A DNA stretch of 62,910 bases from Candidatus Hydrothermarchaeota archaeon. GTDB lineage: Archaea; CAYFZR01. Under the pieces are notes generated by a model, which saw only the letters and a list, made by a program, of their open reading frames with translations, was not told where the DNA came from and did no database searches. The stretch is taken from positions 1-62,910 of the forward strand of contig JBHIEG010000012.1 of the NCBI GenBank assembly GCA_046760505.1, in the 5' to 3' direction. Position 1 is the stretch's first letter; each line of letters starts with the position of its first letter. The position numbers and the translations under genes were made by a program. Shown piece by piece: positions 37,745 to 42,165 of the stretch.

Positions 37745-38901
37745 ATCTCCACCTTCTTCACGTGTACGATTTTTCCGCCCTTGAACTTCCAGAGCTCAAA
37801 GTCTCCGGCAACGTCTCCATTCTCATCAAATGTACAAGGTCCTGAGGCTCCATTGTATTCCTTACTTACTTCTATCAGAACATCCCTTATTGCTCTTCCT
37901 TTTGTGTCCTTCGCCTTCTCCATGGCAAGCGCAATGAGCCAGGTAGCGTCGTAGGCATTAGCAGCATATATACCGGGTGGTGCACCAAATTCCTTTTCGA
38001 AAGCGCTTGCAAATGACTCGTACTGTGGGCTCGCAGGTGGCAATGGAGCGGTTCCAACCATACCTTCGACTAGATCTGCTCCTAAATTTTTTGCGAGAGT
38101 CTCGTCTTTGAGACCTTCCGCGAGGATCCACTGAGCGGTAATTCCCATTTCTTTAGCCTGCTTCAGTATCACAGACCCGTATTCTGGATATCCCGTAAAG
38201 ATTAGAGCCTCTGGATTGCCAGATATGAGTTTCTCTAATTCTGATCTGTAGGATGCCTGACCAGGATTGTATGCAACTCCGATTAAAAACTCTAAGTTAT
38301 ACATGGGCGCATTTTCTTTGATAACATCGTTCATTGCCACTCCATAATCGTTGTTTATGTAAATATGCGCTACCTTCTTGTATCCCATGTCAGAGGCAAC
38401 TTTTGCGAGAACCTTGCCCTGGAAAGCATCAGAGGCGCATGTTCTGAAGAAGTATCCGCCATCGTCAGCGGTCGTTATCAGAGGTGATGTAGAAGATGGC
38501 GAAATCATTACTACCTCGTTATCCCTGCCAATCGGGATTATTGCTAGAGATTCACTGCTAGCCATGGCGCCTACAACAGCCGGTACTTTATTTACATTCA
38601 CGAGCTTATTCATTGCCTTTACAGCGCCTTCCGGAGTTGTTCCAGCATCTTCATGTATTAGCTCAAAGGTTTTTCCAAGAACTCCTCCCTTCTCATTTAT
38701 CTGCTTGGCTGCTAAATCAGTGCCTTGCTGTATAGGTAAACCTAAAGTACCAAGATCTCCGGTTAAATCTAATATGGTGCCCACTTGTATGGTCTCTGGT
38801 TTGGTAGGCTGGATACAGCCTAGGTTTAGAGCGGTTACGTAAGCGCCAGCCAGAACTGTGTACCTCAAAAATGTACGCCTATCCATCCACTCCCCATTCA
38901 T
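37741..38901 (-). CDS. Liv-type ABC substrate-binding lipoprotein (Tat signal)
   Basis: DRRTFL twin-arginine motif, LGC lipobox, INEKGGVLG, FFRT..SD..QG and AYDA motifs; convergent with livF, stops overlapping. Confidence 0.92.
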   Translation of the reverse strand: MNGEWMDRRTFLRYTVLAGAYVTALNLGCIQPTKPETIQVGTILDLTGDLGTLGLPIQQGTDLAAKQINEKGGVLGKTFELIHEDAGTTPEGAVKAMNKLVNVNKVPAVVGAMASSESLAIIPIGRDNEVVMISPSSTSPLITTADDGGYFFRTCASDAFQGKVLAKVASDMGYKKVAHIYINNDYGVAMNDVIKENAPMYNLEFLIGVAYNPGQASYRSELEKLISGNPEALIFTGYPEYGSVILKQAKEMGITAQWILAEGLKDETLAKNLGADLVEGMVGTAPLPPASPQYESFASAFEKEFGAPPGIYAANAYDATWLIALAMEKAKDTKGRAIRDVLIEVSKEYNGASGPCTFDENGDVAGDFELWKFKGGKIVHVKKVEI

Positions 38902-38959
38902 AAAATCACCAAAAGATCTGTAATGAATAAAATATATAATTCTTTTGTAATCTTAACAA

Positions 38960-39604
38960 CTATCTCAACTTCTCAAATTGAATTTTCCCGCTTCTTAAAT
39001 TAATGGTAGCAAACTGAAATCCTACCATAGGTCCTGGATTTATGATTAGGGTATCTTTAATCTCATCTTTCCCTCTGGATTCATGTATGTGTCCACAGAA
39101 ATTATAGGAAGGGGATAATCTCTCTATATACTTCCTTATTGCGATACTTCCTACGTGAAGGCCGCTCCAAGTCTTATCCACTTTAGTATCTCTGGGAGGT
39201 GCATGAGTTACGAGGATGAAGTTTTCTTTTTTATCCAAGAGAGATTCCAATCTTATTTCTATCTCGCTTTCATCCATCTCAAATGGAGTTGAAAAGGGAG
39301 TTAAGTTAGAGCCTCCCAGGCCCAAAAATTTTATGTCGTCTATTTCAACTATTTTTTCATGCAGATTTACTCCCAGTTTTTCTAAAATATTTACGGATTC
39401 TACTGGATCGCAATTTCCGGGAATTGCAAGTATATTGTCGTTTACCTCCATTAGGTTACGAACGTATCTCTCAACCTCCACTGGTCTGCCAAAGTCCGTT
39501 ATGTCTCCCAAGATTAATATTAAATCAAATTCTCCCAACCTTGATTTGATGAGATCATAGGCTCTTTTTTTAGCGTGAAGGTCCGCAAGCAATAAAACAT
39601 TCAT
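38960..39604 (-). CDS. Metallophosphoesterase (Icc-related, calcineurin-like)
   Basis: DLH, GDITDFG, PGNCD, THAPP and CGHIHE motifs. Confidence 0.9.
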   Translation of the reverse strand: MNVLLLADLHAKKRAYDLIKSRLGEFDLILILGDITDFGRPVEVERYVRNLMEVNDNILAIPGNCDPVESVNILEKLGVNLHEKIVEIDDIKFLGLGGSNLTPFSTPFEMDESEIEIRLESLLDKKENFILVTHAPPRDTKVDKTWSGLHVGSIAIRKYIERLSPSYNFCGHIHESRGKDEIKDTLIINPGPMVGFQFATINLRSGKIQFEKLR

Positions 39605-39643
39605 GATGTCATTGTTTTTTTCTTACATTAAATTTTTATGCTG

Positions 39644-39686
39644 GGTAAAGGTTAAATACATGTAAATTACATGTAAAAAACATGAA
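39644..39686 (+). promoter_or_regulatory. BRE/TATA promoter overlapped by phased TACATGTA palindromes (putative RHH operator)
   Basis: GGTAAAG-GTTAAATA, then TACATGTA at 39657 and 39668 and AACATGAA at 39679; exact 11-bp period; the last copy covers the ATG. Confidence 0.65.
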
Positions 39687-40401
39687 ATACATTCAGGCAG
39701 TACTCTCGGACGAGGAATACGAAGAATTTGTTTATATGGCCAAGAATTTAGGCTTAAATATAAAGGATGCGGTAAAAGAATCCATAAAAGCATGGATAGA
39801 GCAGAGAGGAAAGGTTTTCATAAGAGGAGTTGGAGAGGAAGTATTCTCTCATCCAGCATTTGAAGAATGGCACGAATTTTTTATCAAGGAATACAAACCT
39901 CCCGCAAGGAAAATTCTTCTATTTCACAACTGCACATGGGGGAAGCCATACCATGAAGCTTGGATATTCAGAGAAATGGAAAAATCAGTATACGAGGTTC
40001 TTGATCCAAATGAGGTTCATTTCGTTGTTTTAAGTTCAGCAGGTGTAATACCAAGAGAATATTGGGATTACTGGCCTTTTTGCTCGTATGATTCAGATCC
40101 CTGGCAGTTCACCCCCGAGGACCGTAAGGCCTTCATAAGAATAAACTCAAAAAGAGTGGAGAACTACCTTTCAAAGCATTCTGAGAGTTACAAATGCATG
40201 GTAGCATACTTCCCTCTAGGAGACTGTGCAAGAGAAAGCGTAAGAATAGGTCTGGAAAGGTCGAGATGTAAACTCCCTTTTTACGAGGTTCCTGATATCC
40301 ATCCATTCGAAGATAGAAGGGACGAAGATTATTACGCTTGTCTTGCATCAGAAGAGGCCTTGCTACAACTAAAGAACATTTTGAGGAAATTAAATGATTG
40401 A
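39682..40401 (+). CDS. RHH DNA-binding domain fused to an ArcS-like DUF5591 domain
   Basis: N-terminal MKYIQAVLSDEEYEEF...AK..G.NIKDAVKESIKAWI (RHH pattern); HP.FEEW, ILLFHNCTWGKPY and VHFVVLSSAGVIPRE...P...YD as in archaeosine synthase. Confidence 0.78.
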   Translation: MKYIQAVLSDEEYEEFVYMAKNLGLNIKDAVKESIKAWIEQRGKVFIRGVGEEVFSHPAFEEWHEFFIKEYKPPARKILLFHNCTWGKPYHEAWIFREMEKSVYEVLDPNEVHFVVLSSAGVIPREYWDYWPFCSYDSDPWQFTPEDRKAFIRINSKRVENYLSKHSESYKCMVAYFPLGDCARESVRIGLERSRCKLPFYEVPDIHPFEDRRDEDYYACLASEEALLQLKNILRKLND

Positions 40402-41086
40402 GAATCTGATTTCATGGATACTTTTAACCTTGGGAGTTGTAGCCATATCAGCCATCTTTGCTGAAATTTACGGTGTAGAGATAGCCATAGGGGTTTTTGC
40501 AGCCCTAACCGTTATAGCAAATGTATTGGCCTTTAAGATAGTAAATTTTGCAATTTTTTCCGTTCCTTCAGCAGTAATAATCTATGCCTCAACGTTTCTC
40601 ATGACAGATATAGTGGGAGAAAGATTTGGGAAAAAATACGCGAGAAATGCTGTATGGTCAGGATTTATTGCCAATTTAATATACGTTTTAGCGGCTACAA
40701 TAGCAGTAAAATGGGAGCCTGCTCCTTTTATGTCGGCCGATAGCGTTTTAGCCTTTGACAAAGTTTTAGGATTTGCTCCAAGAGTTGTTTTTGCTTCTAT
40801 GGTTGCATACTTAATAAGCCAGCATCATGATGTTTTTGCATTTCACTGGTGGAAGGAGAAAACGAAGGGAAAGCACCTGTGGCTTAGAAATAACGCATCT
40901 ACCATGGTTTCTCAAGCAATAGATACAACAATTTTTATTACCCTTGCATTCTATGGCTCCATGCCCTTGTTACCCATGATAATTGGACAATATACGGTAA
41001 AGGTTCTCATAGCAATGATAGATACGCCATTCATTTATGCCGTCAATTTTCTCGCTGATTATGCGGTAAGGAGTGCAAAAGTATAA
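40394..41086 (+). CDS. yhhQ: Queuosine/7-deazaguanine precursor transporter (YhhQ/VUT family)
   Basis: ANVLA.K, TFL.TD...E.FG, RV..AS..AYL.SQ..DV, LWLRNN.ST..SQ.IDT.IF and DTPF.Y motifs. Confidence 0.93.
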   Translation: MIENLISWILLTLGVVAISAIFAEIYGVEIAIGVFAALTVIANVLAFKIVNFAIFSVPSAVIIYASTFLMTDIVGERFGKKYARNAVWSGFIANLIYVLAATIAVKWEPAPFMSADSVLAFDKVLGFAPRVVFASMVAYLISQHHDVFAFHWWKEKTKGKHLWLRNNASTMVSQAIDTTIFITLAFYGSMPLLPMIIGQYTVKVLIAMIDTPFIYAVNFLADYAVRSAKV

Positions 41087-41123
41087 AGGACTTGAGATTT
41101 TAACTTATACTCCTGAAATTAAT

Positions 41124-41264
41124 TTATGCTCCCTGAAATCTTTCGAAAGTCTTCTTTCTCATGAAAGGTTCTCTCAATATGTTCAATATATTTGGCCAGA
41201 GTTCTTTGTTTTTATGTTTAACTCTCCTCACCCTATATAAACCGTATTTTCTCCTTCTAAACAA
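41124..41264 (-). CDS. Putative 46-aa highly basic microprotein (absent from the ORF track)
   Basis: GGTGA SD then TTG; MFRRRKYGLYRVRRVKHKNKELWPNILNILREPFMRKKTFERFQGA. Confidence 0.35.
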   Translation of the reverse strand: MFRRRKYGLYRVRRVKHKNKELWPNILNILREPFMRKKTFERFQGA

Positions 41265-41424
41265 ATCTTCACCCAAACAAAATTAATTTTGGAACTATTA
41301 TTTAATTATTTCCTTTAATATCTGATTTTTTATGACGTGCGTCTGACAGAATTGGCTAATTAAAAAAATTAAAGTTTTGAAATCTTGCAAAAGATTTTTG
41401 TTAGGAGAACGATTTATTTTTTAC

Positions 41425-42165
41425 ATGGAAGTGAATGTACTTTCACCGGATGAAAGGAAAGTGTTAAAAAAAATATTGTTGTTGAGGCGCATTGAAGAGT
41501 ACCTGACAAAGAATTTTCCAGATCTTGCATTGGACGAGAAAAAAGAGAAAGTTATGGAACTTTTTCTTTCTATAGAGGCACTATATCCTGAACTTGAGAT
41601 TCAACTAAGTTGTGAGTCGTCTTTAGATCTCCATAGATCATATGTGCAGCTTGAAATGTATTCTAGGATATACACTGACATGATAAGTCCTGCGGACGAA
41701 AAAACGGTTGAATCCCTGTTGAAAAAGATTAAAGAATACACATGCCTGCCAGAGTTTAAAGATCTTGGAGATATCATAAAAAACTTAGACAAGATCTCAG
41801 GCAGGGAAGTAGTTGTGGAAGAAAAGGAAATAAAGGTTCCTGTGAAAGAGGAGATTTTCCTACTTCCGGAAACTAAAAAGAGCTTGGAAGAATTTTTTCA
41901 TAATGAAATCATAAGAAAGGAGTTCTTATTAGAAATTGACCCTAAAATCAAAATTACTTTAAGCAAAATAATTGAGGAATACCTTGACAGATTCATAGAG
42001 GTTAGTGAAGAAGCCGCAATAAAATCAATTGAATATGGGCATCTTCAAGGTACAAATAAGGCTTACAACAAGCACATCGAGGAAAAGGTAAGGTCAAGCA
42101 TAAGCTGGTTGGTTAGGAACGATATAATAATTGAAGAAATTCTAGAAAGATTAAATAAAAAATAA
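41425..42165 (+). CDS. Hypothetical helical protein (possible histone-fold-like C-terminal part)
   Basis: Long ORF with typical composition; start placed at ATG 41425 downstream of AGGAG. Confidence 0.7.
   Translation: MEVNVLSPDERKVLKKILLLRRIEEYLTKNFPDLALDEKKEKVMELFLSIEALYPELEIQLSCESSLDLHRSYVQLEMYSRIYTDMISPADEKTVESLLKKIKEYTCLPEFKDLGDIIKNLDKISGREVVVEEKEIKVPVKEEIFLLPETKKSLEEFFHNEIIRKEFLLEIDPKIKITLSKIIEEYLDRFIEVSEEAAIKSIEYGHLQGTNKAYNKHIEEKVRSSISWLVRNDIIIEEILERLNKK

Follow-up and report, generated by a model that had tools for sequence, protein, structure and literature searches.

Bacterial yhhQ and queT genes are controlled by preQ1 riboswitches. Archaea, which do not use the corresponding bacterial riboswitch, have regulators of the RbkR and ThiR type, and ThiR, a ThiN-domain regulator of archaeal thiamine genes, is designed like RbkR. 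The latter is described in PMC8305020 as a fusion of an archaeal enzyme (riboflavin kinase) with a DNA-binding domain. Among the proteins of 7-deazaguanine metabolism, ArcS (NF040592) works with RaSEA and carries the motif PC-x3-KPY-x2-S-x2-H, as given in passages of PMC10516641 and PMC5699537. Canonical ArcS is inactive on the free preQ0 base according to PMC11298593.

The window, a stretch of 62,910 nt from the 2.17-Mb genome (G000) of a Candidatus Hydrothermarchaeota archaeon, contains a gene pair in which an ArcS-type domain is joined to a short N-terminal domain resembling the ribbon-helix-helix (RHH) fold and is followed by a transporter gene:

39682..40401, + strand: fusion gene with ATG start, encoding an RHH-like/ArcS-C1 protein of 239 aa (ORF, Pfam/NCBIfam and AF2 model)
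39682..39807, + strand: RHH-like domain, residues 1-42, with a strand-like MKYIQAVL and helices 10-22 and 27-41 (AF2, Foldseek, Atlas)
39817..40398, + strand: C1-type (DUF5591) domain of the archaeosine synthase family, residues 46-239 (Pfam, PDB 2q07, AF2)
39928..39969, + strand: counterpart of the ArcS motif, NCTWGKPYHEAWIF, residues 83-96 (translation, alignment to the genome's own ArcS, column counts)
40383..40387, + strand: Shine-Dalgarno-like GAGGA, 6 nt 5' of the yhhQ start and within the fusion gene (sequence; putative role)
40394..41086, + strand: yhhQ (COG1738/Vut_1), 7-deazaguanine precursor transporter of 230 aa (Pfam, NCBIfam)

Both ORFs, and their overlap of 8 nt, are present as an earlier note on this DNA had claimed, and the strings that it had singled out (HP.FEEW, NCTWGKPY and VHFVVLSSAGVIPRE...YD) were all found in the translation of the fusion protein. 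Its identification of the neighbour as a YhhQ-type importer was borne out by scores above the cut-off against both Vut_1 (182.2 bits, cut-off 27.2) and TIGR00697, 'queuosine precursor transporter' (173 bits, equivalog cut-off 50.95). The yhhQ gene is present in a single copy in the genome.

The assignment of the C-terminal part to the PF17884/ArcS domain also held. Pfam DUF5591 (PF17884) matched residues 62-176 with 35.3 bits, above the gathering cut-off of 26, and the fusion protein scored 35.9 bits in a genome-wide scan. The only NCBIfam matches were two ArcS alpha models, each over its C1 part, at scores far below their cut-offs (NF040592, 28 bits versus 440; NF053620, 24.3 bits versus 600). 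PDB entry 2q07 (AF0587) was matched by the C1 part both in a sequence search (E 0.0014) and by Foldseek (E 3.2e-5), with an AF2 model whose pLDDT was mostly 84-94; the structure search of the C1 part returned 2q07 alone, and no structure of ArcS with a substrate was found. The fusion protein and ArcS have in common the C1/DUF5591 domain, the Cys-x3-Lys-Pro-Tyr core and a place in 7-deazaguanine metabolism. However, the full ArcS architecture comprises a TGT-like N-terminal domain, C1, C2 and PUA, whereas the 239-aa fusion protein matches C1 alone; neither a TGT nor a PUA domain was found in it with Pfam and NCBIfam, in keeping with the absence claimed previously. Instead, it has a domain of DNA-binding type, and the gene to which it is coupled encodes a transporter, not RaSEA. 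Its identity to the genome's own ArcS is 26% over 85 residues.

Compared with PC-x3-KPY-x2-S-x2-H, the motif of the fusion protein (NC-TWG-KPY-HE-A-WI-F) keeps Cys, Lys, Pro and Tyr, and replaces the first Pro by Asn, Ser by Ala and His by Phe. The change of His to Phe is found in all seven members of the fused clade, while 108 of 174 family members outside this clade have His; Ser is kept in five of the seven and lost in two. Column counts showed C84, K88, P89, Y/F90, E126, Y136, D137 and R158 to be conserved in 7/7 fused proteins, and Cys196 and Cys220 to be invariant solely inside the fused clade.

Residues 1-42 had been read as an RHH domain, and this reading was upheld in part. In a Foldseek search with a 46-aa model, about 30 of 38 rows were RHH proteins (ParG, CopG-DNA, NikR, Arc, the RHH domain of PutA and others), in which the two helices superpose with a TMq of 0.6-0.74 and an rmsd of ~1 Å; all E-values were at least 0.43, with none at E ≤ 0.001. 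Seven of ten Atlas structural neighbours were clusters carrying RHH families, and the strand segment has M1, K2, Q5 and L8 in all five N-termini compared. By contrast, the sequence models stayed below the cut-off: Pfam RHH_1 (PF01402) gave 12.4 bits (E 0.17; cut-off 20.5), a NikA-like Pfam model gave E 0.06-0.07 in the N-termini of two orthologues, and the best Pfam match for two of three N-termini was RepA_N. A profile search of the PDB, based on the aligned N-termini, gave chance-level rows alone (calmodulin and VPg, for example), and the homologue search yielded no candidate among shorter proteins resembling region 1-46. Moreover, residues 2-7 appear as helix, not strand, in both AF2 monomer models. 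The complex prediction for two copies of residues 1-46, with a score of 0.31 (mark, 0.42), weighs neither for nor against a dimer. Together, these results suggest that residues 1-42 are RHH-like at the level of the modelled fold, with sequence scores below threshold. An antitoxin, as an RHH protein with a toxin neighbour, was also considered and was rejected, the adjoining gene being that of a membrane transporter.

The region around the start of the fusion gene contains the following features:

39652..39658, + strand: TATA-like box TTAAATA, centred ~27 nt 5' of the ATG (sequence; putative promoter, from the usual archaeal TATA-to-start distance)
39657..39686, + strand: operator-like site at -25 to +5, three boxes 11 bp apart with an ACATG core (sequence, shuffles, conservation)
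39657-39664, + strand: box 1 of this site, TACATGTA
39668-39675, + strand: box 2, TACATGTA
39679-39686, + strand: box 3, AACATGAA, which includes the start codon

The distance from the TATA-like box to the ATG implies that the transcript of the operon would be leaderless, and no Shine-Dalgarno-like run was found 5' of the ATG of the fusion gene. A counterpart of the TATA-like box, TTTATAATA, lies at an equal offset in a distant orthologue (L051). The three boxes span the region from the TATA-like box through the start codon; boxes 1 and 2 together make a perfect palindrome of 19 bp, with arms (39657-39665 and 39667-39675) that are 100% complementary, and the observed number of boxes was reached in none of 100 shuffles. 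The pattern ACATG-N6-ACATG occurs at this site only in the genome of the window and at the orthologous site only in a related genome (G001), where a reversed-pattern control gave two matches, and it occurs twice in L051 versus 0.04 expected; by itself, a double box is no rarity, as we estimate ~5 per genome by chance from the base composition, and what counts is therefore the presence of three boxes, together with their location and conservation. The triple boxes are kept in L009 and in L051. The latter, whose protein is 49% identical to the fusion protein, has the identical 14-mer ATGTAAATTACATG 22 nt 5' of its ATG and the three boxes at equal offset, the remaining upstream region being unconserved between the two. 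As judged from the DNA sequence, the conserved boxes suggest a candidate operator, repeated and palindromic, beside the gene's own promoter and with a putative binder. No riboswitch, including preQ1, was matched by Rfam in 38900-41500 at E ≤ 1, where the one exception among its models was a sub-threshold snoRNA model.

Linkage of homologues to yhhQ or other deazaguanine genes had been named as a test of the idea, and it was found in the fused clade but not in the wider C1 family. A transporter lies beside the gene at 3/3 loci of the fused clade, representing two independent lineages, and the fusion gene is translationally coupled to it in both. The 8-nt overlap with yhhQ is shared by the window locus and L009/L050; in L051, the place of YhhQ is taken by QueT (PF06177, 79.5 bits), a precursor transporter not related to it, which overlaps the fusion gene by 4 nt in an operon that also includes a GTP cyclohydrolase. 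Among C1 relatives without the N-terminal domain, YhhQ or QueT was adjacent at 0/47 loci. One C1-only relative (L053) adjoins a TGT-like gene. The nearest relatives among the genome representatives are single-chain RaSEA-C1 fusions (Altiarchaeota, DPANN archaea), with 28-41% identity over the C1 part. These share C1 with the fusion protein but have a radical-SAM (RaSEA-like) N-terminus of 235-251 residues instead of an RHH-like one of 45, and they are flanked by housekeeping genes and no transporter, whereas the fusion gene adjoins one. In a sample of ten relatives that carry extensions, at the N-terminus or elsewhere, Pfam identified Radical_SAM alone and no DNA-binding fusion. The fused form is rare.

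On balance, we lean towards the reading that the fusion protein is an autoregulated, 7-deazaguanine-responsive repressor, built like archaeal RbkR and equivalent, in protein form, to the preQ1 riboswitch. We infer DNA binding by the fusion protein, the identity of its ligand and the direction of control. Under this model, the RHH-like N-terminus would dimerise and bind the three ACATG boxes at their 11-bp spacing, with neighbouring dimers probably sitting on one face of the DNA, and the boxes would extend from the TATA box to where the leaderless operon of fusion gene and importer begins. The C-terminal domain would have descended from free-standing enzymes of the ArcS-C1 type acting on the preQ0 nitrile and, with the near-universal residues kept, would be the ligand-binding module, its ligand being preQ0 or a close derivative, possibly held through Cys84. 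The ligand-loaded protein would then occupy the operator and block TBP, TFB and RNA polymerase, switching import off by a logic that would parallel that of the bacterial preQ1 riboswitch. Catalysis may also have been retained, which would make the protein bifunctional, like RbkR, BirA or PutA. Several points count against the repressor model, besides the RHH scores below threshold and a genomic context from only two independent lineages: the near-universal family residues are equally consistent with a working enzyme, another factor could bind the repeats, and the sensing of a free base by C1 would be a new property that needs a change of specificity, because canonical ArcS lacks activity on free preQ0 (PMC11298593).

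The physiology of the host, together with the single yhhQ gene and the negative Rfam search, speaks for the repressor model. Both the genome of the window and G001 contain arcTGT, canonical ArcS and RaSEA, and the former has a separate, adjacent ArcS-RaSEA pair (contig C15), so a role of the fusion paralogue in tRNA modification is unnecessary, though possible. Profile searches found no QueD in either genome and no QueC (best match 29.7 bits versus a cut-off of 150.3), from which it follows that the organism must import preQ0; absence of QueE is not claimable, as TIGR03365 passes its cut-off in only one of 14 control genomes. As a rival reading, C1 could convert or covalently capture imported 7-deazaguanine inside the cell for a carrier without energy coupling, driving net uptake or passing preQ0 to arcTGT, with the N-terminal 45 residues serving dimerisation or docking and some other factor binding the repeats. 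The retention of C84, K88, P89, Y90, Y136, D137 and R158 in 7/7 proteins is consistent with such an enzyme or trap, as are the translational coupling to a transporter in two lineages, the RHH call below the sequence threshold and the activity of the phage C1-only ArcS2 without other ArcS domains, reported in passages of PMC10516641. Against it stands the full ArcS-RaSEA pair already in the genome. In addition, the free G+ base reportedly deamidates to preQ0 spontaneously (PMC5699537), and with arcTGT using preQ0 directly no conversion step is obviously missing. Finally, no transporter adjoins any of the 47 C1 relatives that lack the N-terminal domain, and that domain co-occurs with a unique, conserved operator-like site. 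We regard a role restricted to salvage or trapping as rather unlikely.

Phylogenetic analysis placed the fused proteins in one clade (SH-aLRT 100), with a stem of 0.94, nested among C1-only proteins and with the C1-only protein P0008 as its sister. We count this clade structure and the residues conserved in 7/7 among the evidence for the repressor. The long stem, together with the loss of the motif His in 7/7 and of Ser in 2/7 and with the clade-specific Cys196 and Cys220, would also fit an RHH autoregulator whose C1 no longer recognises 7-deazaguanine and serves oligomerisation or another signal. We judge this improbable: both lineages have a 7-deazaguanine transporter as the partner, although from different families, and pocket-type residues found across the family are retained.

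The fusion protein and C1-only proteins of the ArcS2 type both match phrog_34505. Like ArcS2 (phage and viral, C1 only) and the free-standing archaeal C1 proteins, the fusion protein has the single catalytic-core domain; ArcS2 works with DpdA on DNA, as described in sections of PMC10516641, whereas the fusion has no DpdA, an added RHH-like domain and a transporter neighbour. An ArcS2-like enzyme in which RHH, in place of PUA, brings C1 to DNA for the conversion of dPreQ0 to dG+ would recall the phage pair, ArcS2 and DpdA making dG+ in DNA according to the same source, and the TGT-like gene beside L053 would be in line with it. However, no DpdA candidate was found in the genome, where the only two TGT-family (PF01702) matches are arcTGT and the N-terminus of ArcS; the neighbours are transporters and not DNA-modification genes; and an RHH domain reading one unique site would be poor targeting for genome-wide modification. 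Such a DNA-directed enzyme is, in our view, highly improbable.

The repressor that we favour would resemble RbkR in combining a domain of a pathway enzyme with a small DNA-binding domain to control transport or synthesis in that pathway (PMC8305020), but the DNA-binding fold (HTH in RbkR, RHH-like here), the enzyme family and the metabolite differ. The likeness consists of architecture and gene linkage, and ligand-dependent DNA binding is predicted by analogy. With NikR, MetJ and PutA it shares an RHH-type N-terminus ahead of a domain that binds a ligand or acts as an enzyme, as well as tandem or palindromic operators; their C-terminal domains, by contrast, are unrelated and the sequence similarity is not significant. 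The preQ1 riboswitch has the same kind of target, transporters of 7-deazaguanine precursors, and presumably equal feedback logic, but it is an RNA, while the sensor proposed here is a protein exerting control at transcription initiation. In a bolder version, which we entertain only as a doubtful possibility, a reversible Cys84-preQ0 thioimide would both drive uptake via an importer without energy coupling and turn the RHH dimers operator-binding, thus switching the operon off; it would then be the first sensor of a 7-deazaguanine to be a protein and would do in archaea the job of bacterial preQ1 riboswitches.

The earlier note had proposed an enzyme domain repurposed as the sensor of a regulator and knew of no such system. 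The conserved triple-repeat site, the RHH-like fold and the swap of YhhQ for QueT speak for a regulator, but joining an enzyme to a DNA-binding domain is not a categorically new concept, RbkR being a precedent (PMC8305020). Our search of the Creative Commons PMC and bioRxiv literature found neither a published description of a fusion-type system nor a protein that regulates the salvage of queuosine or archaeosine precursors.

With the fusion protein, the binding partner of the ArcS C1 domain on its own can be addressed directly by experiment. If the protein is a preQ0 sensor, it would reveal the way in which archaea control a nutrient for tRNA modification that they are unable to synthesise, and would add to RbkR a further enzyme core turned sensor, here built on RHH and perhaps using covalent chemistry. 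As a compact part, a 239-aa protein and a 30-bp operator, it would also be a candidate preQ0 biosensor.

The gene pair consists of two open reading frames that share 8 nt, with GAGGA lying 6 nt ahead of the yhhQ start codon:

39682..40401, + strand, ORF of 239 aa, RHH-like/ArcS-C1 fusion gene
40394..41086, + strand, ORF of 230 aa, YhhQ/COG1738 transporter gene

The 230-aa protein scored 182.2 bits against Vut_1 and 173 bits against TIGR00697 'queuosine precursor transporter' (cut-off 50.95), and yhhQ is the sole such gene in the genome of the window (G000). The 239-aa protein belongs to DUF5591 by Pfam (residues 62-176, 35.3 bits, cut-off 26) and matches two NCBIfam ArcS-alpha models in its C1 part only (28 and 24 bits, cut-offs 440 and 600). 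Its sole solved relative is AF0587 (2q07; sequence E 0.0014, Foldseek E 3.2e-5). The domain matches, the overlap and the similarity to 2q07 therefore bear out the earlier description of the ORFs, their overlap, the C1 domain and the transporter. The AF2 model averages pLDDT 80.7, with good confidence in the C1 part and low confidence over residues 1-45. After 2q07, a Foldseek search with the whole model (39682-40398) returned several SMUG1-type uracil-DNA glycosylases below significance (E 0.02-0.06, TMq 0.34-0.44), a hint that the C1 part may be similar in fold to base-flipping glycosylases. Downstream of yhhQ, after ∼290 nt with T-rich runs, lies a 262-aa Glu/Lys-rich ORF (41377-42165, + strand) with no significant match in Pfam or NCBIfam.

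The 77-bp gap 5' of the 239-aa gene closes with TTAAATA followed by three repeats with an ACATG core, an operator-like site that is a new observation beyond the earlier note:

39657-39664, box 1, TACATGTA
39668-39675, box 2, TACATGTA
39679-39686, box 3, AACATGAA, holding the start codon

The boxes are spaced by 11 bp, and the first two together make a 19-bp palindrome without a mismatch. The same-genus copy carries TACATGTA, TACATGCA and AACATGAA at the same positions. At L051, the locus of a distant fused orthologue, the boxes read TATATGTA, TACATGAA and TACATGAA, again with 11-bp spacing and with the third over the ATG; TTTATAATA stands there at the same offset as the TATA-like box of the window, and the 14-mer ATGTAAATTACATG is identical in both, 22 nt before the ATG. 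Farther upstream, the window, the same-genus copy and L051 hardly align. The L051 protein is only 49% identical, and its gene has a different upstream neighbour (DUF354), because of which the calcineurin-like metallophosphoesterase diverging from the 77-bp gap in the window (38960-39604, − strand; PF00149, 59.9 bits) probably lies outside the system.

ACATG-N6-ACATG occurs in G000 at this site only and in G001, the other genome of the genus, at the orthologous site only (2 matches for the reversed-pattern control); L051 has two occurrences, both at this site, versus 0.04 expected. With up to 2 mismatches allowed, none of 100 window shuffles reached the observed count. By chance, base composition would give an estimated 5 or so double boxes per genome, so what counts is that the box is tripled, where it lies and that it is conserved. 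The TATA-like box is centred near −27 of the 239-aa gene and no Shine-Dalgarno-like run precedes that gene; thus, judging from sequence, the transcript is probably leaderless and the boxes would span the interval from TATA to start. A protein bound there would block initiation.

The fused gene of L051 (5001..5705) overlaps by 4 nt a gene for a QueT transporter (PF06177, 79.5 bits, cut-off 33.7), which is followed by a GTP cyclohydrolase of the FolE2/MptA/GCH-IV group, under all three equivalog cut-offs. As passages in PMC11130926 and PMC5699537 have it, QueT and YhhQ are unrelated families with the same substrate class; thus, between the window and L051, the transporter partner is swapped and the function kept. 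A 7-deazaguanine transporter adjoins the fused gene in all three loci with visible context, from two independent lineages, but YhhQ or QueT was found beside none of the relatives without the RHH-like domain in 47 loci (35 from genomes and 12 from metagenomes, some short; tblastn, E ≤ 1e-3). The linkage of homologues to a transporter, named earlier as a check, holds for these fused loci and not for the C1 relatives at large. What adjoins the C1 gene in the 47 is housekeeping genes, nucleotide-kinase/aminotransferase genes in phage-like clusters, or a TGT-like gene. Four distant C1-like proteins (L059:4986-5606, L060:3577-4215, L061:4974-5699 and L063:1669-2550) abut thymidylate-kinase/deoxynucleoside-kinase-like genes, two of these loci also having class I/II aminotransferase genes; the clusters are tightly packed on one strand, include SbcC/Rad50-like ATPases, and may be viral nucleotide-modification modules.

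Few proteins share the N-terminal 45 residues, and the fused form is rare (one 50%-identity cluster).

Relatives carrying the N-terminal region, with identity to the 239-aa protein
L009/L046/L050: same-genus copy, 85%; N-terminal 45 residues
P0002: 66%; N-terminal domain, N-terminus cut
P0003: 56%; N-terminal 45 residues; Candidatus Methanofastidiosia MAG by NCBI name
P0004: 50%; N-terminal 45 residues
P0006/L051: 49-50%; N-terminal 45 residues

A profile search of 1.84 billion representatives gave 517 proteins at E ≤ 0.001; among the 150 matches listed, P0006 alone covers profile positions 1-237. The other relatives are of three kinds: C1-only proteins (roughly 200-240 aa), proteins whose N-terminal extension is unassigned and, among genome representatives, single-chain fusions. 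Twenty-eight of the 35 genome loci without the RHH-like domain encode an extension of 235-251 residues, giving proteins of 401-444 aa; the protein of a further locus has 492 aa. For L011:5290-6603 and L012:5278-6585, a domain scan showed this extension to be radical-SAM and RaSEA-like (TIGR01210, 118-119 bits, cut-off 212), and 26 further loci among L013-L044 were judged by length and C1 similarity. These fusions, from Altiarchaeota and DPANN-type MAGs, lack the TGT-like, C2 and PUA parts and have the look of an archaeosine synthase pared down to one protein.

We built a maximum-likelihood tree from 181 C1 domains by a quick method, with SH-aLRT as its sole support measure, dropping the duplicates L045, L046 and L050 and any row that matched fewer than 130 profile positions. 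In it, the 7 fused proteins form one clade (support 100, stem 0.94 substitutions per column). C1-only P0008 is sister to this clade (support 90), which is distant from both the radical-SAM fusions and G000's own ArcS. Elsewhere, the C1-only protein of L053 (1695-2299) directly follows a 355-aa TGT-family protein (594-1658, 59 bits), the pair being either a split ArcS or of DpdA-ArcS2 type. In two Helarchaeota MAGs (L033:6609-7334, L042:6603-7337), a C1-only gene abuts or overlaps, stop to start, a gene whose 241-244-aa product belongs to no Pfam family.

The N-terminus matched no RHH model significantly (RHH_1, E 0.17; NikA-like, E 0.06-0.07 in two orthologues; VirD1, E 0.055 in one N-terminus), and RepA_N, not itself an RHH family, matched as well or better. 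Modelled on their own by AF2, residues 1-46 (pLDDT 82; helices 10-22 and 27-42) gave zero PDB rows at E ≤ 0.001 in Foldseek. About 30 of the 38 printed rows are proteins that we take to be RHH, in part from their titles (TMq 0.6-0.74, rmsd about 1 Å, 34-39 columns), including ParG, CopG with DNA, ORF56, FitA, NikR, Arc, the PutA RHH domain, NikA, AmrZ and several antitoxins. Seven of 10 ESM Atlas rows are clusters with RHH families, all under the tool's naming bar. Residues 2-7 are drawn as a short helix, not a strand, in both monomer models; the RHH ribbon can form in a dimer only. The RHH assignment proposed earlier thus finds fold-level neighbours but neither significant sequence models nor the strand; overall, residues 1-45 are probably a ribbon-helix-helix.

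Residues of the C1 pocket in the 7 fused proteins and in the 174 others of the family, which lack the RHH-like domain
C84: others 171/174; fused clade 7/7
K88: others 152/174 (Arg in 20); fused clade 7/7
P89: others 172/174; fused clade 7/7
Y90: others 168/174; fused clade Y or F in 7/7
S93: others 158/174; fused clade Ser 5/7, Ala in window and L009
H96: others 108/174; fused clade Phe 7/7
E126: others 124/174; fused clade 7/7
Y136: others 174/174; fused clade 7/7
D137: others 144/174; fused clade 7/7
R158: others 150/174; fused clade 7/7

Phe96 occurs in just 9/174 members outside the fused clade. The pattern fits a fused C1 domain that still binds the same type of ligand, whether or not it turns substrate over. 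The ArcS motif is, in the wording of a passage in PMC5699537, 'proposed to be involved in catalytic activity'; canonical ArcS, as a section of PMC11298593 describes it, refuses the free preQ0 base, takes the nucleoside as minimal substrate and is accelerated by a 5'-phosphate. The main rival, in which the protein acts purely in salvage, as an enzyme or as a trap inside the cell, and some other factor binds the repeats, appears rather unlikely. That the C1 domain no longer recognises a 7-deazaguanine is distinctly improbable.

The 239-aa protein is not an ArcS, because its architecture fails the test for one, and the pair is not an ArcS2 system, because DpdA is missing; a DNA-directed ArcS2-like enzyme is most improbable, G000 having no DpdA candidate. 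G000 (2.17 Mb; estimated 100% complete, 5.67% contamination) encodes arcTGT (C18:12456-13433, 295 bits), a full-length ArcS covering all 575 positions of NF040592 (354 bits, under the cut-off of 440) and, directly after it, RaSEA (343 bits, cut-off 212; ArcS-RaSEA, C15:40737-43320). G001 likewise retains all three. In searches of these two genomes, the only ones of the phylum in the set, QueD was absent from both and QueC reached its cut-off in neither (best score in G000 29.7 bits versus 150.3, first 60 profile positions only). Both organisms therefore appear to be auxotrophic for preQ0 and dependent on its import, with archaeosine synthesis seemingly intact. For QueE, the control was weak, the model TIGR03365 passing its cut-off in just 1 of 14 control genomes. 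The yhhQ operon holds their only recognisable importer; the 239-aa protein comes on top of the full-length ArcS as a further paralogue, one that the tRNA pathway does not need.

No regulator of this kind was found in the Creative Commons PMC and bioRxiv literature, nor any paper there joining YhhQ with ribbon-helix-helix; the alignments of PMC10516641 could still list the fused form. The simplest account, towards which we lean, is an autoregulated repressor with an exapted C1 domain as sensor, with or without added catalysis. The protein resembles NikR, MetJ and PutA, RHH repressors with ligand or enzyme domains, and would fill the same part as preQ1 riboswitches in bacteria. The fused form is rare yet directly testable; such a repressor would govern uptake of the 7-deazaguanine precursor and might, at L051, also act on the first step of its synthesis.
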